Position numbers and translations under genes: made by a program
Notes under the pieces: model-generated
What the model saw: the letters and a program-made list of their open reading frames with translations, nothing else
What the model was told of the DNA's origin: nothing
Database searches by the model: none
Shown here: piece by piece, positions 1 through 13,760 of the stretch
Numbering within the stretch: the stretch's first letter is position 1
Layout: each line of letters begins with the position of its first letter
Virus record (IMG/VR): IMGVR_UViG_3300043449_002191
Coordinates: 1 to 64,000 of that record
DNA: 64,000 bases
Direction: 5' to 3' (one strand)
DNA from: a virus

Positions 1-2
1 AT

Positions 3-3000
3 GTTAGAAAAGCAATAGCTTCAAACCCAAACCTTGATCCTGTACATCATGCTAAACTAGTTAATGATGCAAAGCCTGATGTTAGAGAAGCAATAGCTGA
101 AAATCCATCTTACATAAAATGGTTAGAAAACCAAAAAAACGAATCTCTAATTAAAATGTCTAGACCTAAAATCACATTCCCTCAAATGGGAGTTGGAACT
201 AGACCCGACCAAGAAGTTCAGTTGGTAGAGACTCCTAGACAAAAGAAGCTTTTTGCTCGCAAAGTTGCTCAACAAAAAATACCAGACAAAGTAGCTACAA
301 CACTTACTGCGGATTATCAACCTAAAGAAGTAAAAGTTTCTATGCAGGCTTCTAGAGATAGAGAAACAAAGAAACTCGTAAACACCCTTTCCGGCAGGAC
401 TTTAGGACTAAGTGCTACTACGCCTACAAAACCTTTTTCAGTTACTTTAGCCGGAAAAGAGCGCTCTAAGTTCGAAGAAGGCGATGAAGAGTACAAAAAG
501 AAATTAAGTGAACATGAACAAAAAACAAAAGCACTAAAGTTAGGCTATAAGCAAGCGTTAGATGAATGGTGGAATAAAAAATATCAAGCAACCCTCAGAG
601 GCGACCCTGGCGCTCTTACAATAGAAGAGTTAAAAACAACAAAGCCTGTAGAGCCCAAATACCCCAGGAGACCGTCTAAAAAGAAAGTTGACACTAGCAA
701 ACTTTCACCTGAGAAAATTAAAGCCCGTGGCCAATCAGTTGATTCAACCATACATCATGAAGCTTTCCATGATAGTTTAGCTAGAATTAAAGCAAAACAC
801 GGACAAAAGGCTTATTCTGGAGTACTCCAAGGGCTTTTGAGTCATTATGACAAAGACACTCTTACTCATGTAGGCACATTTATAAGCAAAGTCCTTGGGT
901 ATAAACCTAGAACCCCATCCTTTTCAGAAGAACTTGTTACCCATAGCAGAGATATTTTAGCAAACGATGCTAAAAGAAAAAAGTTCGTAGAATTCATTAA
1001 AAAGATGAATCCTGAAAAAGGTGAAGAAAAAGCTAAAGAAGTTATCCAAAAAATGAAAAAAGGCCATCAAAAGGCTTATGAGTGGTCACAAAAATTAAAG
1101 CCAGAAGATGTATTAAAGTCTATACTTTTGTCGGATAATCTCAACAAAGCAGAAGACTTAGAAAAAGGTGCAGCTAGACGTTTATATGGAAAATTTAATC
1201 CACAAAAAGAGCTGGAAGAAACTGACAACGAAATGTCAGATTGGGTTACTGGAAATAGTGAATCCCGTGAAAAAATCCCAGATCCATCGCCAAACGCTAA
1301 ATTAAGGATGATGAATAAGCTTTCATCAAAAGCTCAAGTAAGAATTAATCCACAAACAAAACAAAGAGAGTTTTTACTGCACAGACAAATGTCTGATTAT
1401 GAATATGATGAAAACGCAAAAAATGGCAGAATAAATCATAATCCGTCAACTGATAACAGCGGCCACACCTCTTGGAGTTCAAACTTGGACAAAATTTACT
1501 CTGGAATATATTCCAGAGATTCTTTTGATAAAGATGACAACCAAAGTTATAATCATATAGTTTCTGCATGGATTCCAGAATCTCATATAAAAACTATACC
1601 CATTCAATACGGTGCTGCAGGAACTCAAAGTCGCAAAAAAGAAAACGGACCCCCAACAAGCACTTCTCAGAAAGAGCAAGAAGTTATCGTGAATCCAGGC
1701 CATAATTCTGAAATACATGAAGTATATAAAGATACTGGCGCAGATCCTGAAAACTGGAATTGGCAGAAAACTTTCCAAAAATCAGAATCATTAGAAAAAG
1801 GCTTAAAAGGCGATTGGCAAAAAGAAGGCTACACAATGCAGCATTCCCATAATTCTGATTTAAACCAACACAGAATTACAGCTTTTACCCCAAAAGGCGA
1901 TGTAGCTGGCTCATTTATATTTGAGCAAGGTCCAACTGGATTTATGGCTACATCTGCCCACGTAAAACCAGAGCATCAGCGAAAAGGTCTTGCCTCATCA
2001 GCTTACCAGCTATTTGAAAATAGATCTGGACAAAAGTTGATGCCTCATACAGGCAGATTTGGTGAAAGTAAACAGTCCCCAGATGCTGAAGCACTATGGG
2101 CTAATCCAAATAAAACTTTCGGTAAATCAGAAGATTTTGGAAAAAACAATTATTCTTTTGTTGGAACTTGTATAGATATTGGCAAAGAAAATCACCAATT
2201 AACTAATATTGGCGATGCATCTGATTGGGACAGAATGACGACAGAAGAATCTGTACCTATTTCAAAACAAAAATTTGAAAACTATACAGGTAAAAAATAT
2301 AAAAATGCTATATCTTTTGGAATACATCCAGAACATAAATTTATATGGGCAGAACTTCCACATTCAGATGGGGTTGGGACAGTACATCATTATTATTTTA
2401 AAAACTTCGGTAAATCAGAAGATTTAATTAAAACAGAAACAAAGATTAAACAGCTAGCAAATCAGTATGCTACCAATAAAGGCATGAAGTTAAGCCATAA
2501 CTACCAAGTCAATCTTAATCCAGATCACGGTAAAGCTGTAGCTCATGCTTACGACCAAATGAAGCATGACCCAGAACATCCAGAAACAAAAGCCGCATAT
2601 AATGCCCTTATCGGTGAAACTGGTGACCAATTCCAGCATCTAATGAATAGTGGGCTTAAAATATCTAGAATGCAGCCTGGGCAGGAAAATCCATACAAAT
2701 CTTCTAAAGATATGCTACATGACCTCCATGTAAATAATCATTTATGGTATTATCCTACTGAACAAGGATTTGGAGATAGTGAACAAGAAAAGGCGCACCC
2801 CATGCTCCAAACTACTAAATTCTCTGACAACAAAAACCCACTTTTAGCTAATGATATTTTTAGAATTGTCCATGACGCTTTTGGACATGGATTAACTAAT
2901 TCTACTTTTGGGCCTAAAGGCGAACACGCTAGTTATTTAGCGCATAAAGAAATGTTTAGCCCTCTAGCTCAAAAGGCACTAACTACTGAGACTTTAGGCC

Positions 3001-3128
3001 AGAACAGTTGGGTAAACTTTGGACCTAAAGGTGAACATAACAGGAAAAATCCTGAGCAAACGATTTTCGCAGAACAAAAAGCCGGACTTTTACCTGAATC
3101 TATTTTAAAAGGTAAATGGCATGAATAG
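3..3128 (+). CDS. 5'-truncated polyvalent/polyprotein (LRV/HEAT-like repeats, HExxH module, ART-like, GNAT, unknown module, HDxFGH module); probable virion head cargo
   Basis: The frame is open from nt 3 (VRKAIASNPNLDP...VREAIAENP...QKNESLIK-MSRPK), so ATG156 is probably internal. Motifs: HHEAFH; LLHR..TSWSS..EQEVIV; VKPEHQRKGLAS; HDAFGH. Modules are separated by KxExLxK linkers. Confidence 0.75.
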   Translation, partial: VRKAIASNPNLDPVHHAKLVNDAKPDVREAIAENPSYIKWLENQKNESLIKMSRPKITFPQMGVGTRPDQEVQLVETPRQKKLFARKVAQQKIPDKVATTLTADYQPKEVKVSMQASRDRETKKLVNTLSGRTLGLSATTPTKPFSVTLAGKERSKFEEGDEEYKKKLSEHEQKTKALKLGYKQALDEWWNKKYQATLRGDPGALTIEELKTTKPVEPKYPRRPSKKKVDTSKLSPEKIKARGQSVDSTIHHEAFHDSLARIKAKHGQKAYSGVLQGLLSHYDKDTLTHVGTFISKVLGYKPRTPSFSEELVTHSRDILANDAKRKKFVEFIKKMNPEKGEEKAKEVIQKMKKGHQKAYEWSQKLKPEDVLKSILLSDNLNKAEDLEKGAARRLYGKFNPQKELEETDNEMSDWVTGNSESREKIPDPSPNAKLRMMNKLSSKAQVRINPQTKQREFLLHRQMSDYEYDENAKNGRINHNPSTDNSGHTSWSSNLDKIYSGIYSRDSFDKDDNQSYNHIVSAWIPESHIKTIPIQYGAAGTQSRKKENGPPTSTSQKEQEVIVNPGHNSEIHEVYKDTGADPENWNWQKTFQKSESLEKGLKGDWQKEGYTMQHSHNSDLNQHRITAFTPKGDVAGSFIFEQGPTGFMATSAHVKPEHQRKGLASSAYQLFENRSGQKLMPHTGRFGESKQSPDAEALWANPNKTFGKSEDFGKNNYSFVGTCIDIGKENHQLTNIGDASDWDRMTTEESVPISKQKFENYTGKKYKNAISFGIHPEHKFIWAELPHSDGVGTVHHYYFKNFGKSEDLIKTETKIKQLANQYATNKGMKLSHNYQVNLNPDHGKAVAHAYDQMKHDPEHPETKAAYNALIGETGDQFQHLMNSGLKISRMQPGQENPYKSSKDMLHDLHVNNHLWYYPTEQGFGDSEQEKAHPMLQTTKFSDNKNPLLANDIFRIVHDAFGHGLTNSTFGPKGEHASYLAHKEMFSPLAQKALTTETLGQNSWVNFGPKGEHNRKNPEQTIFAEQKAGLLPESILKGKWHE

Positions 3129-3675
3129 GCATAAAAGGTCTACCGAAGAGTATAAAAAAGAATTAAACCAAATGAATAGCGATCACACCTTATCTAAAGC
3201 GGCCCCTGATTATAAGACTCAGGCCAGCTCAGGAGTAATTGCTTACTATCCAGTTTCATTTCGTGGCAAAAAGCTTTCTGATGAAGGTGTCCCGTTCCAC
3301 ATGACTGTAAAATTTTTTGGACATAAAGACTCCCTAGATCTTAATGATGTTAAGCAAAGAGTGGAAAAACACAGAGCATTACTGTCCCAGCCTGTAGATG
3401 AAAAAGATATAATGGCTATTCCTCACAAGTTTAAAACTCAGACAGGCATCACTCATCACGTTTTATTGTTACATGGTGTTCCAGACCATGTTAAGCAAGT
3501 ATATGAAAACAATAAGGATATTGGAGCTACTTATAAAAGTTTTGCCCCACATATCACTGTTTCTGAAGAAATCTATAACCAATTAAACGGTAAACCAGCC
3601 AGAGCTACAGACTTAGGTATTAAGTTTCATCCTGCTGAGTTCAAGGTAGGCGACCAAGTACATAAGACTTTTTAG
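3121..3675 (+). CDS. 2H phosphoesterase (2'-5' RNA ligase / Acb1-like fold)
   Basis: Two HxT motifs (PFHMTVKF, APHITVS) about 84 aa apart; N-terminal leader ends in TLSK-A. Confidence 0.75.
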   Translation: MNRHKRSTEEYKKELNQMNSDHTLSKAAPDYKTQASSGVIAYYPVSFRGKKLSDEGVPFHMTVKFFGHKDSLDLNDVKQRVEKHRALLSQPVDEKDIMAIPHKFKTQTGITHHVLLLHGVPDHVKQVYENNKDIGATYKSFAPHITVSEEIYNQLNGKPARATDLGIKFHPAEFKVGDQVHKTF

Positions 3676-3679
3676 AAAC

Positions 3680-3688
3680 CCTAATCTT
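3680..3688 (+). promoter_or_regulatory. CCTAATCTT putative late promoter (first of 15 copies)
   Basis: Exact copies at 3680, 6736, 7625, 10522, 14199, 17875, 19882, 29572, 30699, 32810, 33731, 39703, 42370, 50852 and 53571, each within ~100 nt upstream of a + strand start. Confidence 0.85.
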
Positions 3689-3711
3689 TTTAATAGAATA
3701 TTGGGGAGCTT

Positions 3712-6700
3712 ATGGCTGAGCGTAAAGAAGAAAAGAAGATTTCTATTCCTAAAAAAGAATTAGTCCAGGAACACAAGCATTTAGTTAGTGTCCTTGAATC
3801 CCCTTCTCATAAAGATGATATTGCAGAAGCTACAAAGCAACGTAAAGAATTAAAGGGATATACTAAAAAAGCAGACCCACTTGCATCAGAACTTACATCT
3901 GAAAAAGGTGTTTCAGAATCTGGCATTGAAGCAAGAAGAGCCGACCCAAAACAAAAAGGTCTAGTGTCACATGGATATGCTAGAATTACTTCACCAGAAA
4001 AGCATGGCGAAAGAGCTAAAAACTATTTCAGGCAGACGTTAAATAAACTTAAAGCTCAAGCTAAGCCAAATCTCCCTAAATCTGAAGAAGCCATGGAAAA
4101 GTCTACAGCCCTAGAAAGATACCTTAAAGCAAAAGGTAAAAGTAAATGGGAAGCGAGAGCTAAAAGATCAGCAGGTACTCCAAAAGGTGTTCATACCCCC
4201 ACAAAAGTTAAAGGTGGAAATAGTGAAGCTGGTGATTTTGCTATAGGAAGAAAAGTTCCAGCAAACGATTACGATTTTTCTCCAAACAGAACAGCCGGAA
4301 AAGAAAAAGCAAGATCTTTACACGCAAACAAATTAAAAGAACTTCGCAATATGCCTAAGCCAAATCTACCTAAATCTGAATATGAAGATATTGATAATGA
4401 TGGCAAGAATGATGCACAAGAATCTCATGGCCAGATTAATAGAAAAAAAGCTGATTTAAATCAAGATGGCAAAATTACTCACAAAGAAGCTGTAAAAGCA
4501 TCTAGCATGAAAAAAGAAGAGCTAGACAAAAAAGATAGATGCTGGGATGGATATAAACCAGTCCCTGGTAAAAAGCCGTATGAAAAAGGTTCTTGCGCCC
4601 CAATTGAAAAGTCAGAAGAAGTTCCATGCACCTGTGGAGCTGAAGATATCAAAAAAGACGAAAAGCCTTTTCATGGGTACAATAAAGAAAAGCATTCAAA
4701 GTCTGGCGGATTAAATGATAAATACCGTAAAAAGTATAATCGTGAAACTGGCTCTAATTTACAACGTCCAAGTAAAGATAAAGACAATTCTAGGCATAAA
4801 TCATTTTGTGCAAGAATGTCTGGAGTAAAAGGTCCAACTTCAAAAGAAGGAAAACTTACCCCTAAAGGCGCAGCTTTAAAAAGATGGAATTGCTCTAAAA
4901 ACGATGACGCTAAAAATCTTACTAAAGATGAATCAGCAGCAACTGCCGTTGCACCAAAAATCTGGTCTATTAAGCATCAGCCAACAGAACAGGGCGGTTT
5001 TGTACATTTTTCTCATCCACAACACGGAACTGTAACAATTAAGAAAAACCCAAGACCTGGACTTGCTACTGAAAACCCGTATGTTGCTGTTCACAATGGA
5101 GCCCCTGTTGGTAGATATAAGGATATCCATACTGCGGTCCATGGTGTAAAAAATTATGTTAGTACTTTGGGTAAACAGACTAATACTAGAATGATTAACA
5201 GACCAGTTGCAAAATCTGAATATTTTAAGCTTAAGCTTGAATCATTAAAAAAAGCTGGGTGGGGATTTGGACTTGGCGGAACTTGGGGATTTCACACTAT
5301 TAATAATGATGAAAGCTCTAATAGATTTGGTAAAGATGATCAAGACCCTAAAGTTTGGCCAGAAGATCACCCAGACTACCGTCATCATTCAAAAAACGCA
5401 ACTCCATATACAGGAGCTGGAGTAACTCGTAATAGTCGTGGCGGAGCTAGCGTTTCAGTTGGTAGTAGAGGTCATTATATTGATGCAGATCAAGTTCCGC
5501 ATATAATTAACGCTCTTACTAGAGGTAAAAAGGCAACAGTAGAATCTAAAGGTTTTGGAAGAAAAGCTGAATACGGGCCAGAGCATCTTGAAGAGTTTAA
5601 GAAAGTTTTTTCTAAAAAGACAGAAGGCTTAGGTAAATCAGAAAAGCTAAAAAAAGATGAAGGCAGTTCATCTTATGTAGATGGCTATTTAAATAAGATG
5701 GACAAATCCCTAAAGACTTTTCTTTTACACAAAGACCGAAATGTTGATTCTATAGTTAATTCTGCATTAAATAAAGGGCAAAAAGAAAAAGCTTTACATA
5801 AATTAAAATCTCAAGAAAAATATTTAAGACGAGGATATGAATTTTCAAAATTTGTTAAAGATTCTAAAAATTCTCAAACGGGTCCTCAAATTAAAACTGG
5901 AACTTTAAGTGGAGCAAAATATAAAGATCGCCCAATTCCAAAATTCGGTATTGTCGCTGGCCATACTTGCCCACAAAAAGGTAATTGTTTTGGTACTTGT
6001 TATGCATTGCAAGGCCAATATGATATGAATAAAAATCTTATTACAAATAATGTCAATAATTGGGCTGCAGCAGAGAGAGATGATTTTGTACCTAAAATGT
6101 CAGAACATATTAGCAAAACTGTTCACCCAGGCTCTCTTTTTAGAATTCATGATTCTGGAGATTTTTATAGTCAAGATTACCTAGACAAATGGAGAGATAT
6201 CGCAAAAAACCATCCAGATAAAACCTTTTATGCATATACTAAATCATTAAATTTAAACTTTGATGATATCGATAAGCTTCCAAATTTTAAGATAATTAGA
6301 TCTATTGGAGGTCAGCAAGATGATAAGATTGACCCAAGTAAGCCCCATGCTGTAATTTTTCCTAATATAGAAGAGCTGCACAAGAACGGATACACCTATG
6401 TTGGCGATAACGATGCTTTAGCCGCAGATCCAAATGTCACAAAAATAGGACTAGTCCATCACGGTACTAAAGGTAGAGATTTTCATCCAAATATTTATTC
6501 ACATTTAGGGATAAATCTAGCTGATACAAAAGTTAGAAAAGCCCCTAAAGCAGATAAAAAACCTAAATTAAAACAAGAGTCTAGTCCAAGTTTTGATGTT
6601 AAACTCATTAAAAATGAAATAGCTAATAACCAAGAAAGTTTATCTGGACATACTTTAGACCAGCCAGATTTAATGAATAGACTTATGGATGATTATAAAT

Positions 6701-6750
6701 TGAATAATTATTTTAAAGCTAAATTGGCTAAAAACCCTAATCTTAAGTAG
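3712..6750 (+). CDS. Polyprotein with duplicated KPNLPKSE module, EF-hand-like loops, CWxGY motif, DUF6321-like module and Gp88-like (radical SAM-related) domain
   Basis: DIDNDGKND and DLNQDGKIT; CWDGY..GSC; GGLN..RKKYNRETGSNL..KSFCARM..RWNC; TCPQKGNCFGTCYA..RIHDSGDFY..FYAYTKS; many KSE/KKDE linkers. Confidence 0.65.
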   Translation: MAERKEEKKISIPKKELVQEHKHLVSVLESPSHKDDIAEATKQRKELKGYTKKADPLASELTSEKGVSESGIEARRADPKQKGLVSHGYARITSPEKHGERAKNYFRQTLNKLKAQAKPNLPKSEEAMEKSTALERYLKAKGKSKWEARAKRSAGTPKGVHTPTKVKGGNSEAGDFAIGRKVPANDYDFSPNRTAGKEKARSLHANKLKELRNMPKPNLPKSEYEDIDNDGKNDAQESHGQINRKKADLNQDGKITHKEAVKASSMKKEELDKKDRCWDGYKPVPGKKPYEKGSCAPIEKSEEVPCTCGAEDIKKDEKPFHGYNKEKHSKSGGLNDKYRKKYNRETGSNLQRPSKDKDNSRHKSFCARMSGVKGPTSKEGKLTPKGAALKRWNCSKNDDAKNLTKDESAATAVAPKIWSIKHQPTEQGGFVHFSHPQHGTVTIKKNPRPGLATENPYVAVHNGAPVGRYKDIHTAVHGVKNYVSTLGKQTNTRMINRPVAKSEYFKLKLESLKKAGWGFGLGGTWGFHTINNDESSNRFGKDDQDPKVWPEDHPDYRHHSKNATPYTGAGVTRNSRGGASVSVGSRGHYIDADQVPHIINALTRGKKATVESKGFGRKAEYGPEHLEEFKKVFSKKTEGLGKSEKLKKDEGSSSYVDGYLNKMDKSLKTFLLHKDRNVDSIVNSALNKGQKEKALHKLKSQEKYLRRGYEFSKFVKDSKNSQTGPQIKTGTLSGAKYKDRPIPKFGIVAGHTCPQKGNCFGTCYALQGQYDMNKNLITNNVNNWAAAERDDFVPKMSEHISKTVHPGSLFRIHDSGDFYSQDYLDKWRDIAKNHPDKTFYAYTKSLNLNFDDIDKLPNFKIIRSIGGQQDDKIDPSKPHAVIFPNIEELHKNGYTYVGDNDALAADPNVTKIGLVHHGTKGRDFHPNIYSHLGINLADTKVRKAPKADKKPKLKQESSPSFDVKLIKNEIANNQESLSGHTLDQPDLMNRLMDDYKLNNYFKAKLAKNPNLK

Positions 6751-6766
6751 GTAAAGAGGTAATAAA

Positions 6767-7366
6767 ATGGATAAAAAACAACTTTTAGAAATGACTAAAG
6801 CTTTACTTATTAAAGCTCAAAAAGATGGCCTTAAAAAAGATGATATGCCACATCCTGCTAATTCCCCAGAAGACAAGGCTCATGATATCGTAGAAGAGGA
6901 TGAAAGCATTAAGCAAGCCTTGGCTATCCTAGATACTCCTGAAAAACAAGCTAAAATGTTTGAACACCTCCGCTCTTTGTCTGATAAAGAAAGTCTCCGT
7001 TCACCTGAAAATCAAGAAGCAGGTAAGGAAATGGAAAAATCAGCAATTGAGATCGTAAAAGGATTGCTTAAGAAGTCCCAAGAAAACCCTGCTGAGTTTG
7101 AAGAAATGGCTAAGGCTTTGATGCCAGCCCCTGCTACACCCCCTGCTGCTCCAAAAGGCACCGCAAAAGCTCCTGCAGCTAAAATGCCTAAAGCACCTAA
7201 AATGCCTAAAAGTCCAGCTGCTCCTGCTCCTCAGATGATGAAAGAGGAAAAAAAGGAAAAAAAGGAAGAAATGGAAAAATGCGGTCCAATGAAGATGAGC
7301 AAAGAAGAGATTAAAGAAGATTTAAAGAAGGAATGGAAGCCTAAATTCAAAAAGGAATCTAAATAA
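6767..7366 (+). CDS. Charged, helical scaffold-like head protein
   Basis: Lys/Glu/Pro/Ala rich; repeated EMEKS, LKKS, EMAKA, EMEKC motifs; follows a CCTAATCTT box. Confidence 0.45.
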   Translation: MDKKQLLEMTKALLIKAQKDGLKKDDMPHPANSPEDKAHDIVEEDESIKQALAILDTPEKQAKMFEHLRSLSDKESLRSPENQEAGKEMEKSAIEIVKGLLKKSQENPAEFEEMAKALMPAPATPPAAPKGTAKAPAAKMPKAPKMPKSPAAPAPQMMKEEKKEKKEEMEKCGPMKMSKEEIKEDLKKEWKPKFKKESK

Positions 7367-7629
7367 TGTCACAAAAGAAACGTGAGATTAAAAAAGAATA
7401 TACCATTGTTGGCCAGAAAGCTGAAGAAAATCAAACTCTTACAGCTAATCAGCCACAGCCTATGCATATTCAAATTTCTTTTGATCAATGGTGGTTACAA
7501 ACGCAACAAAAATATAACTTTAAAACTGACCTTAAAGAGGCCCTGAAGAAACACTTTGAAGCCAAAGGTTTCATGGACGATAGTAGGAATTTCGATAAAG
7601 GGTTGAAAGATTTTGGGTTTAATACCTAA
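7366..7629 (+). CDS. Hypothetical virion protein
   Basis: TAATG-coupled to the previous ORF; lies just before the sheath gene. Confidence 0.6.
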   Translation: MSQKKREIKKEYTIVGQKAEENQTLTANQPQPMHIQISFDQWWLQTQQKYNFKTDLKEALKKHFEAKGFMDDSRNFDKGLKDFGFNT

Positions 7630-7658: not shown

Positions 7659-10433
7659 ATGGCTCAATCATTTACTAACGAAGACGGTATTACGCTGATA
7701 AATCCAGGTACTTATGTATCAGTATCTGTTAAATCTGGACAAGGAGCTATTGCTTCTGCCGGAGTTGTTACACTCATCGGTGAAGCTGATGAAGGAGACG
7801 GATTCCTTTCTGAATCTGATCTCGCTGATGTAGCATTTACCCCTGATCAATATGGTAAAGTATTGCTCAAGTACGGTTCTGGTCGCATCGTTGATGCCTT
7901 CAGAGCTATTGTTGCTGCTGCTAACGATCCTAATATCGCAGGCGCTGTAACACTAGTAAGAATTTTAAAAACAAACCAATCAACTGCTGCCTCTGCATTG
8001 ATGTCAAAAATCCAAGCTGACTACGCTGAACTTAAAGCTCGTAAAGCTGGTGCCCCTGGAAATACTATCCGCTTTAAATCAGAAGCTGTATCTGTAGAAG
8101 TTGCTCCTGAAACAGGAAAAATCTCTTACGCTCCTCTTTTGACTGGAAGCGCATCTTTGGGAGTTCGTGCTAACGGATTGATCAACTCTTCTATTTCTGT
8201 ATCTGCTAAACAATCTGCTGAAGCTCTTGTAGCTTCTATTGAAGATTTACAAAAAGGTATCCTAGCTAAAGGTGGGCAAGAAAAACTTATCTTGCCTGCT
8301 GCTGGAACTACAATTAGTTTAGCCGCTGCCGATGCATCTACAATTGTAATCACACTTGCTACTGGCTCTCAATGGACAGAAGTTCCTGAAGCTGGCGATA
8401 CTCTTGTTATCCCTGCTAACGGTGATTACTCTGCTGCTCAAGATTCTGCTATCTCTGGTGCTGCTGGAGAAAACGTAGGTACATACATCGTTCAAGATGC
8501 TACAAATACTTTGACTTCAGCTACTATCACTGCTAAGAAAATTTCTGCTGCAGGATCTCTTGCTGGAGATTCTGGCACAGTAAGTGTAGATAAGCGTGAT
8601 ATCGTTATCTACAAACAAATCGAAATCAAAAACCTTTCTGGTCAAGACCTTAAAGCCCTTGTAGGAGTCGATGGGTCTTACCAATCTACTCTCAATGATG
8701 GTGTTAACGCAAAAATCCAACTTCCTGCTGGAAAAGTTTTTGCAACTCAACCTAAAGCTGGAGACATTGCGGTATTAGAAGCTGCTTTCTGTTCTGTTGC
8801 TGCTGGTTTCTACCAAGTTGTTAGCGCTACAACTAACACTGTAACTTTAACTAGACTTTCAGAAGGAAGCTCTGGATCTACCACTTCTTCTGAAGCTGTA
8901 GCTGCTCCAGTAGAAGAAGCTACTCAACCTATGAAATTGATGCAAAAAGAGATCGATGGACTCGGTAAAACTCTTTGTATCGAAGGTGACGTAGAAGCTA
9001 TCTTCAAAAAAGCTGATGGGTCTGCTGCTGGACTTTCTAACAAACAACTTATTTCTGCTTCTGAATATAAGAACCAAATGACATACACTAAAGGTGATGC
9101 TTCTGAGTCTCTTAAAGCTGGCGGTGAAGTTGTACTCCTCGTTGGATGCTCTGAAGAAGATGCTACAATGGTTATCGATGATTCTAAAATTGACTTTAAA
9201 GTTGCATCTGTAACTAGATTTTCTGCCTCCTATAAAGACTTTAAAACACTTTCTGACCTTGCTTCTTATATCAGCTCTCAGACTAACTTCTCTGCGTCAG
9301 TTGCTTCTTCTAAGTACGCTGCAGCTAAACCTGCTGACTTAGATAACGGCACATTTGCTATCTCTGGACTTGAGTCTCATAAGAACGGAAGAATTAAGAG
9401 AGATGCTTCTGAGTGGGCTAAAGCAAACGCTGGGTCTACACTTGTAGCTGTTACTCTTAAGGCTGAAGCTGGTCTTCCTGTTACTTCTGCTGACAAGTTC
9501 TTGACTGGTGGAGCTAAGAACGGAACTACTTCTGCTCTTATCACTACAGCTATTGACGCTGCAGAAAAACTTGAAACAAACTTTGTTGTACCTCTTTTCT
9601 CAGTAGATGCTGATGCAGACATCGAGCAGAGCGAAACTGAAAGCTCTTCCACTTATACAATTGATGCCATCAATGCTTACGCTAAAGCACACGTCATCAA
9701 AATGTCTGCCATCAAAATGAAGAAAAACAGAGTAGCACTTCTTTCTAAAGAATCATCTTACGATGCTGCTAAGGAAGCTGCCGGAGAACTTTCTTCTTAC
9801 AGAACTTATCTCTGCGTACAAAAAGCTAAAAACGTATCTTCTACTGGTGAAATCAAGATGTACCAACCTTGGATGTCTGCAATTATCGCTGCTGGAATGC
9901 AAGCTGCTGCAGGTTACAAAGGTATTGTTAAGAAGTTTGCCAATGTAACTGGTATCGCTACTCCAGAAGGCGACTTCGACCCGAACCTCCCTGGTGATTC
10001 TGAAGATGCATTGAAAGCCGGAATCCTTTTTATGGAAAAAGTTCCAACTGGTGGATTCCGCTGGGTATCTGATCAATCTACATACAGCTTAGACAATAAC
10101 TTTGTCTATAACAGCTTACAAGCTGTCTATATCAGCGACCTTATCACACTTACTCTTATTGATCGTTTTGATAAGCTTGTTGTTGGTAAATCAGTTGCTC
10201 AAATGACTGCAAATGCCGCTCTTTCAATCCTTGAAGCTGAAATGTTTAACTTCCAGCGTCTACGTTGGATTGCTTCTTCCGATGATGCTCCTAAAGGATA
10301 CAAGAATGCAACTGCCACACTTAACGGTGGAGTAATGGAAATTGCTGTAGAAATCAAATTGGCAGGACTTATTTACTTTGTTCCTATCAGCCTTTCTATC
10401 AGTCAAGTTACTCAGACAGCGGCTCAACAATAA
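7659..10433 (+). CDS. Contractile tail sheath protein with large insertion
   Basis: N-term PGTYVSV..VVTLIGEADEG; C-term sheath domain (ALKAGILFMEK..RWVSDQSTY..YFVPISLSI); GGAGG SD. Confidence 0.9.
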   Translation: MAQSFTNEDGITLINPGTYVSVSVKSGQGAIASAGVVTLIGEADEGDGFLSESDLADVAFTPDQYGKVLLKYGSGRIVDAFRAIVAAANDPNIAGAVTLVRILKTNQSTAASALMSKIQADYAELKARKAGAPGNTIRFKSEAVSVEVAPETGKISYAPLLTGSASLGVRANGLINSSISVSAKQSAEALVASIEDLQKGILAKGGQEKLILPAAGTTISLAAADASTIVITLATGSQWTEVPEAGDTLVIPANGDYSAAQDSAISGAAGENVGTYIVQDATNTLTSATITAKKISAAGSLAGDSGTVSVDKRDIVIYKQIEIKNLSGQDLKALVGVDGSYQSTLNDGVNAKIQLPAGKVFATQPKAGDIAVLEAAFCSVAAGFYQVVSATTNTVTLTRLSEGSSGSTTSSEAVAAPVEEATQPMKLMQKEIDGLGKTLCIEGDVEAIFKKADGSAAGLSNKQLISASEYKNQMTYTKGDASESLKAGGEVVLLVGCSEEDATMVIDDSKIDFKVASVTRFSASYKDFKTLSDLASYISSQTNFSASVASSKYAAAKPADLDNGTFAISGLESHKNGRIKRDASEWAKANAGSTLVAVTLKAEAGLPVTSADKFLTGGAKNGTTSALITTAIDAAEKLETNFVVPLFSVDADADIEQSETESSSTYTIDAINAYAKAHVIKMSAIKMKKNRVALLSKESSYDAAKEAAGELSSYRTYLCVQKAKNVSSTGEIKMYQPWMSAIIAAGMQAAAGYKGIVKKFANVTGIATPEGDFDPNLPGDSEDALKAGILFMEKVPTGGFRWVSDQSTYSLDNNFVYNSLQAVYISDLITLTLIDRFDKLVVGKSVAQMTANAALSILEAEMFNFQRLRWIASSDDAPKGYKNATATLNGGVMEIAVEIKLAGLIYFVPISLSISQVTQTAAQQ

Positions 10434-10925: not shown

Positions 10926-13760
10926 ATGACGATATTAAGCGGATTAAGTGCTTTAGAAAAAGGTCAACAAGGTACAGCTACTTTAGATAAGGCTGGACTA
11001 TTTGCCTTAGCTCCAATAGCTGCTGACCCATATTTTTCTGTACAATCAAACGTAGATAAAGCTTTATTTTTCTATAAAGCTACAAATTCTACCCAAAAAG
11101 AAATTCTGATTTTTGACTTAAGCCAAGCTCAACCAGAGGCTATAGCTAGTTTTTCAGAAACGGCACTAAATGATTGGGAAATTGAAAAAATTATTTTAAC
11201 TGATTTTGACGGCGGATCTTTTATTGTACAAAATGGTGATTTACCGACAGACATACAAATTCAATTACCTAACTTAGTGACATTTACTGAAACAATTTCT
11301 GGCGTATCTAAAATTAATGCTGTAGTAAGAACATCAGCAATCCAATCAGATGGTAAGATTTTATTGGGTGGAGATTTTACAAATTATGGAGGCACAATAG
11401 GCAGAAATAAGCTTATTAGATTAAATGCTGACGGTACATTAGATACAGCATTTTGTGTAAACGCTGTTGATGGATATAAATTTAGCAATATAGTTTGGGC
11501 AATAGCAGTTCAATCAGATGGTAAGATTCTTGTTGGTGGAGATTTTACAAATTATGGATTCACATCAGGTAGAGGCAGGCTTATTAGATTAAATGCTGAC
11601 GGTACATTAGATTTAGATACAAGTACTCCTAATGGTCAGCATTTTCATACTAATGCAGTTGATGCAACCAAGTTTAACAATACAGTTTACTCAATAGCAG
11701 TCCAGTCAGACGGTAAGATTCTAGTAGGCGGAAACTTTTCAAACTATGCAGGTACAACAAATAGAAATAGGCTTATTAGATTAAATGCCCATGGTACATT
11801 AGATTTAGATACAAATACCCCTAATACTGCACATTTTCATACTAATGCAGTTGATGCAGCTAAGTTTAGCAATACAGTCTGGACAATAGCAGTCCAATCA
11901 GATGGTAAGATTCTAGTAGGCGGAAGCTTTTCAAACTATGCAGGTACAACAAATAGAAGCTATTTAATTAGATTAAATGCCCATGGTACATTAGATTTAG
12001 ATACAAATACCCCTAATACTGCACATTTTCATACTAATGCAGTTGATGCAGCTAAGTTTAACAATACAGTTTACTCAATAGCAGTTCAATCAGACGGTAA
12101 AATTCTTGTTGGTGGAGATTTTTCAAGTTATGCAAGTACATCAGGTAGAAATAGACTTGTTAGATTAAATGCTCATGGTACACTAGACACATCATTTTGT
12201 GCTAATGCATCTGATTCGTTTAAAATTAATAATATAGTTTTCTCAATAGCAGTCCAATCAGATGGTAAGATTCTAGTAGGCGGAGACTTCACTAATTATT
12301 CTTTTGTATCAAACAGAAATAGACTAATTAAATTAAATGCCGATGGAAGCTTAAATACTGCATTTTGTGCTAATGCATCTGATGGAGATAAATTTAATGC
12401 CATAGTTTATTCAATAAAGGTTCGATCAGATGACAGTTTGGCAGTAAGCGGATTTTTTAATGGCGGCTACGATAAAAATACTCGCTTTACAATAATTAAT
12501 TCTGACGGAACATTTAATCAAACGACTTTAGAAATATCGGGAATTGGAGCTAAAGTTCCAGTTGGTACAATTTTGGCAATAGCAGTACAGTCAGACGGTA
12601 AGATTCTAGTAGGCGGAGCATTTCAACGATATGGGGGAGTATTAAACAGAAACTATTTAGTTAGATTAAATGCTGATGGTACATTAGATACAGCATTTTG
12701 CACTAATGCAGTTGATGGAGCCAAGTTTAGCAATACAGTCTGGGCAATAGCAGTCCAGTCAGACGGTAAGATTCTAGTAGGTGGATCATTTACAAGTTAT
12801 GGTACGGCAGGTAGAAACTATTTAATTAGGTTAAACTCCACTGGAACTTTAGATTTAGATACAAGTACTCCTAATAGTCAGCATTTTCATACTAATGCAG
12901 TTGATGGAGCCAAGTTTAACAATACAGTTTACTCAATAGCAGTCCAGTCAGACGGTAAGATTCTAGTAGGTGGAGATTTTATAAATTATGCAGGTACAAC
13001 AAATAGAAATAGGCTTATTAGATTAAATGCTCACGGTACATTAGATTTAGATACAAATACTTCTAATAGTCAGCATTTTCATACTAATGCAGTTGATGCA
13101 ACCAAGTTTAACAATACAGTTTACTCAATAGCAGTCCAATCAGATGGTAAGATTCTTGTTGGTGGAGCCTTTTCAAGTTATGCAGGTACAACAAATAGAA
13201 GCTATTTAATTAGATTAAATGCTCACGGTACATTAGATTTAGATACAAGTACTCCTAATAGTCAGCATTTTCATACTAATGCAGTTGATGCAGCTAAGTT
13301 TGGTGCAATAATTAGGACTGTATACGTACAGTCTGATGGAACAATTCTAGTAGGTGGAGACTTTTTTCATTATGGAGGCACAACAGGTAGAAGTAAGGTT
13401 GTTAAATTAAATGCTCACGGTACACTAGACACATCATTTTGTGCTAATGCAGTTGATGGATCTAAATTAAATGGAAGTATCTATATAGCTAAACCACAAT
13501 TAGATGGCAAAATTTTAATAGGTGGAGGGCTTATAAATTATGCAGGCGTAACAGGTAGAAACTACTTAGTTCGATTAAATGCTGATGGTACATTAGACAC
13601 AGCATTTTGCACTAGTGCAATTGATGTAGGAAAATTTAACAATCCGCCTTATACAGCAGTTGATCAATTAGATGGCAAATTGTTTATAGGTGGAGAATTT
13701 ACCACTTATGCAGGTAAATACGATAGATTAATCGTATTAAAAAATGGTCAAATATTTTAA
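10926..13760 (+). CDS. TLDKA anchor domain plus 14 Delta-60 (DUF5122-type) beta-propeller repeats; putative adhesin/decoration protein
   Basis: 14 copies of (I/A)AVQSDGKILVGGxF..RLNAxGTLD (copy 7 degenerate). Confidence 0.8.
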   Translation: MTILSGLSALEKGQQGTATLDKAGLFALAPIAADPYFSVQSNVDKALFFYKATNSTQKEILIFDLSQAQPEAIASFSETALNDWEIEKIILTDFDGGSFIVQNGDLPTDIQIQLPNLVTFTETISGVSKINAVVRTSAIQSDGKILLGGDFTNYGGTIGRNKLIRLNADGTLDTAFCVNAVDGYKFSNIVWAIAVQSDGKILVGGDFTNYGFTSGRGRLIRLNADGTLDLDTSTPNGQHFHTNAVDATKFNNTVYSIAVQSDGKILVGGNFSNYAGTTNRNRLIRLNAHGTLDLDTNTPNTAHFHTNAVDAAKFSNTVWTIAVQSDGKILVGGSFSNYAGTTNRSYLIRLNAHGTLDLDTNTPNTAHFHTNAVDAAKFNNTVYSIAVQSDGKILVGGDFSSYASTSGRNRLVRLNAHGTLDTSFCANASDSFKINNIVFSIAVQSDGKILVGGDFTNYSFVSNRNRLIKLNADGSLNTAFCANASDGDKFNAIVYSIKVRSDDSLAVSGFFNGGYDKNTRFTIINSDGTFNQTTLEISGIGAKVPVGTILAIAVQSDGKILVGGAFQRYGGVLNRNYLVRLNADGTLDTAFCTNAVDGAKFSNTVWAIAVQSDGKILVGGSFTSYGTAGRNYLIRLNSTGTLDLDTSTPNSQHFHTNAVDGAKFNNTVYSIAVQSDGKILVGGDFINYAGTTNRNRLIRLNAHGTLDLDTNTSNSQHFHTNAVDATKFNNTVYSIAVQSDGKILVGGAFSSYAGTTNRSYLIRLNAHGTLDLDTSTPNSQHFHTNAVDAAKFGAIIRTVYVQSDGTILVGGDFFHYGGTTGRSKVVKLNAHGTLDTSFCANAVDGSKLNGSIYIAKPQLDGKILIGGGLINYAGVTGRNYLVRLNADGTLDTAFCTSAIDVGKFNNPPYTAVDQLDGKLFIGGEFTTYAGKYDRLIVLKNGQIF
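11330..13740 (+). repeat. Intragenic tandem repeats of ~160-185 nt (Delta-60 blades)
   Basis: Near-identical DNA units, e.g. repeated cattttcatactaatgcagttgatg. Confidence 0.9.

Follow-up and report, generated by a model that had tools for sequence, protein, structure and literature searches.

Identical linker DNA on both sides of a variable module in a polyvalent protein gene of a phage

IMG/VR record IMGVR_UViG_3300043449_002191 is a 157,341-bp phage genome, and its first 64 kb (64,000 nucleotides, called the window below) opens inside a long gene that carries a short repeated DNA sequence at boundaries between its encoded domains. The contig ends overlap by 68 bp, so this first open reading frame (ORF1) wraps around them; it starts at genome position 155335 and stops at window position 3128, and its product has a total of 1,688 amino acids (aa). 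ORF1 lies between the major capsid protein (MCP) gene (genome 133932–135320) and the tail sheath gene (window 7659–10433), a phage-type late or virion gene neighborhood, which implies that the product is delivered together with the DNA. The MCP and its counterpart in Myxococcus phage Mx1 are 54.5% identical, the gene order is the same in Mx1, and a 1,479-aa “NUDIX hydrolase” and a “kinase” likewise lie between capsid and sheath in that phage; judged by these similarities, the phage is a relative of Mx1 (an Mx1-like myophage). A Pfam scan of ORF1 gave no match, and its architecture consists of a NUDIX-like N-terminus, repeats, a domain here called A, a GNAT module, a module here called X and a C-terminal domain (C-domain), a set of unrelated effector-type domains within the range of 2–15 that characterizes polyvalent proteins. 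The other ORFs between capsid and sheath are also multi-domain, and NUDIX, GNAT, PI3/4-kinase-like, SLT, GP88, VTC, mCpol and ART-PolyVal domains are found in them and their homologs; these ORFs belong to the class of polyvalent proteins of phages and conjugative elements described by Iyer, Burroughs, Anand, de Souza and Aravind (2017; PMC5512222). The repeats in the N-terminal half of ORF1 are about nine tandem copies of a 78-nt (26-aa) unit (..NPNLDPVHHAKLVN..) at genome 156660–157341 and window 1–110; they contain exact matches of 29–67 nt and resemble the LRV/HEAT-like repeats annotated in the homologs P0059 and P0063.

The 20-nt sequence TTCGGTAAATCAGAAGATTT occurs exactly at 2118–2137 and 2406–2425 on the + strand, as the initial annotation of this DNA had reported, and no further match with three or fewer mismatches is present in the 64-kb window. 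Shuffled sequences give an expectation of 0.01 matches, and none of 100 shuffles reaches two. Both copies lie in the frame of ORF1, where they encode F-G-K-S-E-D, and identity around the pair extends to 25 of 27 nt (from 2111 and 2399). Their spacing is 288 nt, or 96 codons, and the 268 nt between them encode module X ((F)GKNNYSFVGTC...HHYYFKN). When the 20-mer was counted genome-wide, as that annotation had proposed, one more copy came to light (18 of 20 nt identical, genome 146084), which lies 13 kb away across the contig junction and follows a GNAT paralog; the shorter core GGTAAATCAGAA does recur at 5632 in the next polyvalent ORF, as claimed, where it forms part of LGKSEK. No other IMG/VR contig contains the exact 20-mer. 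Its sole metagenome match lies inside a bacterial glycosyltransferase (PF00534/PF03808) and was set aside as a chance match.

Other linkers are repeated in the same manner. A second exact 20-nt linker match (1150–1169 and genome 145743–145762) lies ahead of unrelated domains, since the first of these linkers precedes domain A and the other precedes the paralogous GNAT. In the next ORF a pair of sequences at 4061 and 4355 that encode KPNLPKSE are identical at 25 of 26 nt and bracket a 98-aa module, whose similarity to its neighbor is no better than that of shuffled sequences. Indeed, the isolated exact repeats of at least 17 nt in the polyvalent protein genes, outside the 78-nt tandem repeats of ORF1, are all at linkers. 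Tandem duplication was considered as the origin of the repeats and rejected: X is unrelated to its neighbors, and the PNLPKSE-flanked modules are no more alike than shuffles. Divided at the linkers, ORF1 contains domain A (211 aa), the GNAT (115 aa), X (96 aa, one linker included) and the C-terminal part (235 aa). The window GNAT has the sequence HQRKGLASSAY, a candidate for the acetyl-CoA binding motif Q/R-x-x-G-x-G/A of the GNAT fold, and scores below Pfam thresholds; its paralog, which is 34% identical to it, matches PF00583 at 4.5e-6.

Comparison with relatives shows in-frame swapping of modules at these linkers (module shuffling). The related genome G001 carries a syntenic ortholog of ORF1, P0003 (1,267 aa), which has the same flanking genes and is 50% identical in domain A and 75% in the C-domain. 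In P0003 these two domains are joined by a single FGKSED linker (...WQKIFGKSEDLQK...), where the two alignment blocks have 11 residues in common, and the 211 extra residues of the window protein are exactly the GNAT (115) plus X (96). Other relatives have other things in front of the C-domain: a 402-aa segment with an LIKSN linker in P0004, a VTC module with IEKSE in P0011, a GNAT-...-GNAT-136-aa module-LGKSE arrangement in P0010, and in P0012 a GNAT followed by a different segment of about 75 aa. In P0046, P0074 and P0114 the GNAT tail (..PNRPFGKSE) is joined directly to the C-domain, which is the window arrangement minus X. Among 121 proteins (120 homologs and that of the window) the C-domain occupies the N-terminus of 20, the interior of 57 and the C-terminus of 44, and the 150 aa upstream of it fall into 36 clusters among 101 proteins; domains found in the relatives' polyvalent proteins include NUDIX, GNAT, VTC, mCpol, ART-PolyVal and kinase. 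One C-domain homolog, in Rhodococcus phage E3, carries the annotation structural protein, and one in a Planktothrix phage is called a “large polyvalent protein”. The proposal of the initial annotation that modules are exchanged in frame at the linkers is thus borne out by P0003, which lacks GNAT and X precisely at the linker, and by the other relatives that have different modules or none. That annotation had also proposed a search for alleles that lack exactly 288 nt or carry other modules; at the level covered here, that of more distant relatives (none closer than about 75% aa identity), the outcome favors cassette-like exchange.

Module X is rare. Searched exhaustively, 1.84 billion cluster representatives yielded three true homologs (50–64% identical), all of them stand-alone proteins of 97–130 aa in phage-like contigs with small genes; two of the three end in ...HHYYFVN* and ...HHYFFRD*, exactly at the module end before the second FGKSED. 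Two other candidates, P0008 and P0009, are repeat-rich compositional matches and were dismissed. The invariant residues of X include a Cys, several His and an Asp; its AF2 model has a pLDDT of 69, and a fold search with it found no PDB or viral fold match. With the window protein and the three stand-alone homologs set aside, X was found in only one of 242 other proteins compared, P0199 (53% identical), and it was not found in the relatives G001–G003. P0199 is a 483-aa protein of a freshwater Mx1-like phage (L023:9001–10452) that adjoins the portal gene and has the architecture protease-LKKSE-X-FIKSE-GNAT; X and a GNAT of the same family are thus neighbors there as in the window, in reversed order. 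By these sequence comparisons X is an autonomous domain, which is found on its own, fused to a protease and within ORF1, and which has the linker motif at its boundaries wherever it is fused, in line with the earlier suggestion that the repeated linker DNA brackets a self-contained module.

X is rare and absent from the syntenic orthologs, and gain in the window lineage is therefore favored by the sequence comparisons as the direction of change. The opposite history, in which X (with or without the GNAT) was ancestral, the relatives lost it by deletion between the linker repeats, and the linkers are identical by gene conversion with no recent insertion, seems on the whole unlikely. Direct repeats of 20 nt that lie 288 nt apart would be natural substrates for precise in-frame deletion, the identity of the linkers does not track the age of the domain next to them, and X and the same GNAT family are neighbors in P0199 too; but many independent losses would be needed to leave three stand-alone representatives in 1.84 billion clusters and a single occurrence among the compared proteins, and X has a different position and different partners in the window protein and in P0199.

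The peptide FGKSED is an instance of a more general motif, hydrophobic-x-K-[S/A]-E, often followed by x-hydrophobic-x-K (for example FQKSESLEKG, LNKAEDLEKG, FGKSEDLIKT and LPKSEEAMEK). The ORFs from capsid to sheath have 27 sites in 11,948 aa, where 3.5 are expected from composition (about eight-fold enrichment), and all other ORFs have eight sites in 34,186 aa, where 6.7 are expected (Fisher p=3e-10 for the comparison of the two sets). Four of the sites are in an acidic scaffold-like protein encoded just upstream of the capsid gene. In Mx1 the motif is present in the scaffold-like and polyvalent proteins and missing from the sheath, although the GC content of that phage is 55%.

Genes for the large terminase subunit (TerL), the portal and a head maturation protease (phrog_1028, E=1.7e-12) are found at genome 117.5–125.2 kb. 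In the protease N-domain His42 and Ser119 are invariant across 30 homologs, and its AF2 model (pLDDT 75.5) has as top Foldseek matches the proteases of HCMV, EBV, KSHV and PRV (probabilities 0.97–1.0) and T4 gp21, with modest TM-scores of 0.3–0.4. The N-domain has no PDB sequence match and no Pfam protease match, so that the assignment is carried by the fold and the PHROG match; by its modeled structure, then, the phage encodes an assemblin-fold serine head maturation protease. Pfam and PHROG scans found no peptidase domain, and hence no embedded metallopeptidase (MPTase) or autopeptidase, in ORF1 or in the second polyvalent ORF. Fusions of the protease to cargo modules, joined by linkers of this same motif, are found in some relatives. 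The protease of this phage (genome 123467–125173) is itself fused to a PI3/PI4-kinase-like domain (PF00454, 1.6e-6), a fusion kept in well over 100 homologs; in other relatives its partner is X plus GNAT, or polyvalent modules that end in the C-domain.

Packaged proteins of T4 and the phiKZ-like phages are cut by prohead proteases that act at short motifs and cleave after a Glu within them (PMC10052503). Because the motif is enriched eight-fold specifically in head proteins and the phage has a protease of predicted assemblin fold, there is good reason to infer that the linkers are head protease cleavage sites; the scissile bond could be the one after E, by analogy with T4 gp21 and SPN3US gp245, or the one after K. 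That the motif instead stays in the mature proteins, as a flexible spacer or as a tag for capsid targeting or packaging, is in our estimation quite unlikely. The cut is a prediction, with either E or K as the residue before it (P1), and the linker residues are of low confidence in the model and probably disordered; against this, the acidic scaffold-like protein by the capsid gene has many copies of the motif, which is restricted to ORFs of the head module, it is conserved across the clade, the cultured Mx1 included, some relatives have it as the joint between the protease and cargo, and Glu-specific prohead proteases that cut ejection proteins provide a precedent (PMC10052503).

The codons used at the linkers bear on the history of their DNA. 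Given the codon usage of the genome, the probability that two FGKSED peptides share all six codons is 0.011, and that three FGKSE peptides share all five is 7e-4; the shared codons include the minor codons TTC (19%) and TCA (25%). The cores of the two GNAT paralogs have identical codons at 15 of 36 identical residues, where 17.3 are expected, and are thus fully saturated, whereas the linkers that flank them have 11 of 12 codons identical, where 6.2 are expected. Among eight linker pairs with at least five residues in common, four have all codons identical and three differ in one codon. A similar excess of synonymous identity is seen in an independent genome: contig L019 (570–1560) contains a 33-nt exact repeat (CCAAATCGCCCTTTTGGTAAATCAGAAGAATTA) whose copies form the tails of two GNATs and lie 954 nt apart, with 13 of 13 codons identical, and these GNATs have few residues in common outside their conserved N-terminal linker and tail. 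Identical linker DNA of this kind marks events of copying, recombination, duplication or gene conversion that are specific to a lineage and to certain linkers. The initial annotation had read the synonymous identity as a sign that X was inserted recently, and this does not follow: the same codons are present at the third linker, beside the GNAT paralog with its saturated core, and linker identity does not date the insertion of X because it is equally high next to this anciently diverged domain.

Together these observations make it fairly probable that the FGKSED linker DNA copies separate polyvalent modules, are likely protease sites, and are places where modules move in frame. Linkers of the type hydrophobic-x-K-[S/A]-E(-x-hydrophobic-x-K), of which FGKSED is one sub-family, would separate the modules of virion-associated multi-effector proteins, and the assemblin-fold head protease would cut the polyvalent proteins at the linkers into single-domain cargo. 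Since the linkers have the same codon phase and a common sequence, recombination, duplication or gene conversion within them could move whole modules in frame. X would then sit between the native FGKSED tail of the GNAT and a second copy of that tail that now joins X to the C-domain, and the exact identity of these two copies, together with the third, would reflect recent copying or homogenization of linker DNA in this lineage and neither codon bias nor a nucleotide-level function. A bolder version of this proposal is conceivable and perhaps doubtful: the linker of about 20–30 nt may be both a protease cut site and a phase-locked recombination joint, and Mx1-like phages may continually swap effector modules among their polyproteins, the protease gene and free-standing genes.

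Several points weigh against the proposal that modules move at protease-site linkers. No genome above about 75% aa identity is present in the collections searched; a megablast search of window positions 1–7000 against GenBank phages had no match, and a protein-seeded metagenome scan for relatives found nothing. The GC content at third codon positions (GC3) of X, 0.146, is only at the 3rd–6th percentile, and a foreign origin of X argued from it was judged weak. Cleavage at the linkers, which had also been part of the initial annotation, is well supported, though indirectly, by the motif enrichment in head proteins and by the assemblin-fold protease, and is a prediction; the literature searched holds no proteomic data for the Mx1-like clade. 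The TTCGGTAAATCAGAAGATTT pair alone has a chance probability of about 1%, which is not negligible. When all 27 linkers are pooled, the excess of codon identity is not significant (p=0.10), so genome-wide homogenization of all linkers was rejected and homogenization is therefore confined to sub-families. In the relative G002, four PKPNLPKSE linkers use varied codons, and the DNA of the X-flanking linkers in L023 differs; identical DNA is therefore not general to these linkers.

The last of these points could also be taken to mean that the FGKSED peptide is conserved for its function and the same codons recur by coincidence, with no recent event at the DNA level. This is improbable: the pooled test, the relatives that keep the peptides with varied codons, and an AT-rich genome with strong codon bias all fit it, but the probabilities for the pair and the trio are low and involve minor codons, two more linker sub-families in the genome and the independent contig show the same pattern, and the linker codons beside the GNATs are alike when those of the GNAT cores are at random expectation. 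That the 20-mer is a DNA or RNA signal that merely overlaps the coding sequence has very little to recommend it. In its favor, all eight FGKSE-coding matches in four genomes use AAATCAGAA, and at least one of these matches, on the opposite strand in G002/G003, is outside called ORFs; against it, other K-S-E sites freely use TCT, AGT, AAG and GAG, which argues that there is no nucleotide-level constraint, and the 20-mer is found in no other IMG/VR contig and, in metagenomes, only in the glycosyltransferase mentioned above.

Table 1. Features of ORF1 and the second polyvalent ORF that bear on the linker repeats (window coordinates unless marked genome)
Feature	Position	Strand	Remarks
C-terminal 1,041 codons of the 1,688-aa polyvalent ORF1	3..3128	+	collinear with P0003 of G001; NUDIX N-terminus and C-domain common to both, module insertions or deletions between
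Linker LNKAEDLEKG, start of domain A	1140..1169	+	1150–1169 = genome 145743–145762
Linker FQKSESLEKG between domain A and GNAT module	1773..1802	+	
GNAT-like acetyltransferase module (HQRKGLASSAY)	1790..2117	+	paralog at genome 145751–146083; absent from G001 ortholog
Repeat copy 1, FGKSED linker	2118..2137	+	native tail of the GNAT cassette family (..PN[KR]xFGKSE)
Module X, alpha/beta domain, about 89 aa	2138..2405	+	stand-alone homologs; P0199 fusion
Repeat copy 2, FGKSED linker joining X to C-terminal domain	2406..2425	+	not in stand-alone X homologs
C-terminal domain (phrog_3170 family)	2426..3128	+	in at least 582 polyvalent proteins, N-terminal, internal or C-terminal
Linker/tail AKPNLPKSE, copy 1, second polyvalent ORF	4061..4086	+	
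Linker/tail PKPNLPKSE, copy 2	4355..4380	+	25 of 26 nt identical to copy 1
Linker LGKSE, contains GGTAAATCAGAA	5629..5643	+	

The second polyvalent ORF (3712–6750) encodes DUF6321 and GP88 (PF17338) domains, and five K-S-E linkers split it into modules of 79–368 aa. Elsewhere in the window, the sequence ACCTAATCTT occurs five times, where 0.24 are expected, at 7624, 10521, 14198, 32809 and 53570, all on the + strand. Four of the five copies lie about 30–45 nt upstream of ORF starts (the sheath gene at 7659, and 10566, 14229 and 53601), and longer shared versions are present elsewhere in the genome; the sequence is a candidate for a late-promoter-like motif. A gene at 10926–13760, just downstream of the sheath region, encodes a 944-aa protein with 13 DUF5122 beta-propeller repeats and contains many long exact DNA repeats with a 192-nt period.

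If the head protease does cut at the linkers, phages of this kind would pack enzymes in strings and set them free as individual effectors, unlike processing by an embedded peptidase, and a simple motif would allow module boundaries to be read from sequence in hundreds of uncharacterized giant phage proteins. If they are also preferred crossover points, this would explain extreme architectural diversity without disruption of the reading frame and would mark natural, tolerated fusion points. Should this dual-purpose linker code be real, it would be a protein-level analog of exon shuffling that generates diversity of anti-host effectors. The motif is present in the cultured Myxococcus phage Mx1, so that both the cleavage and the crossover ideas can be tested at the bench.

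The cassette exchange of polymorphic toxins and the modular theory of phage evolution likewise involve short conserved sequences on either side of variable modules, and crossovers within these sequences preserve function and frame. Unlike those systems, the joints described here lie inside genes and encode protein, and they probably serve as protease sites as well; a silent cassette array for these modules was not found in the genome. The resemblance to T4, phiKZ and SPN3US is that an assemblin-fold serine protease (predicted here) is encoded between portal and capsid, that scaffold and packaged proteins repeatedly carry a short motif with a Glu, and that the cargo is delivered to the host. 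The prohead protease motifs of those phages are L/I-x-E for T4 gp21 and A-x-E for phiKZ and for SPN3US gp245 (PMC10052503, PMC5694885), and T4 and phiKZ-like phages are known to cut their ejection proteins, mostly to remove an N-terminal propeptide (PMC10052503); here, in contrast, the motif hydrophobic-x-K-[S/A]-E lies between every pair of modules, which implies a beads-on-a-string release, with cleavage as a prediction.

Like the known polyvalent proteins, those of this phage string unrelated effector domains together in giant polypeptides encoded beside virion genes, with very mosaic architectures; here and in the relatives the effectors are NUDIX, GNAT, a truncated PI3/4-like kinase, ART-PolyVal, mCpol and VTC. 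Cassette-like recombinational variability was already suggested for kinase-containing loci in that work (PMC5512222), where processing is ascribed to embedded zincin-like MPTase domains and the word “linker” is absent. The present proteins differ from the ones described there in that no MPTase was detected, a uniform short linker delimits the modules, the linker motif is common to a scaffold-like protein and points to the head protease, and the linker DNA is repeated. What appears to be new is, first, a uniform linker motif that delimits every module and is common to the scaffold-like protein, second, the release of many effectors from one chain by the head protease, as implied by that motif, and third, the duplication or homogenization of the linker DNA itself, with insertions and deletions of modules that fall exactly on the linker.

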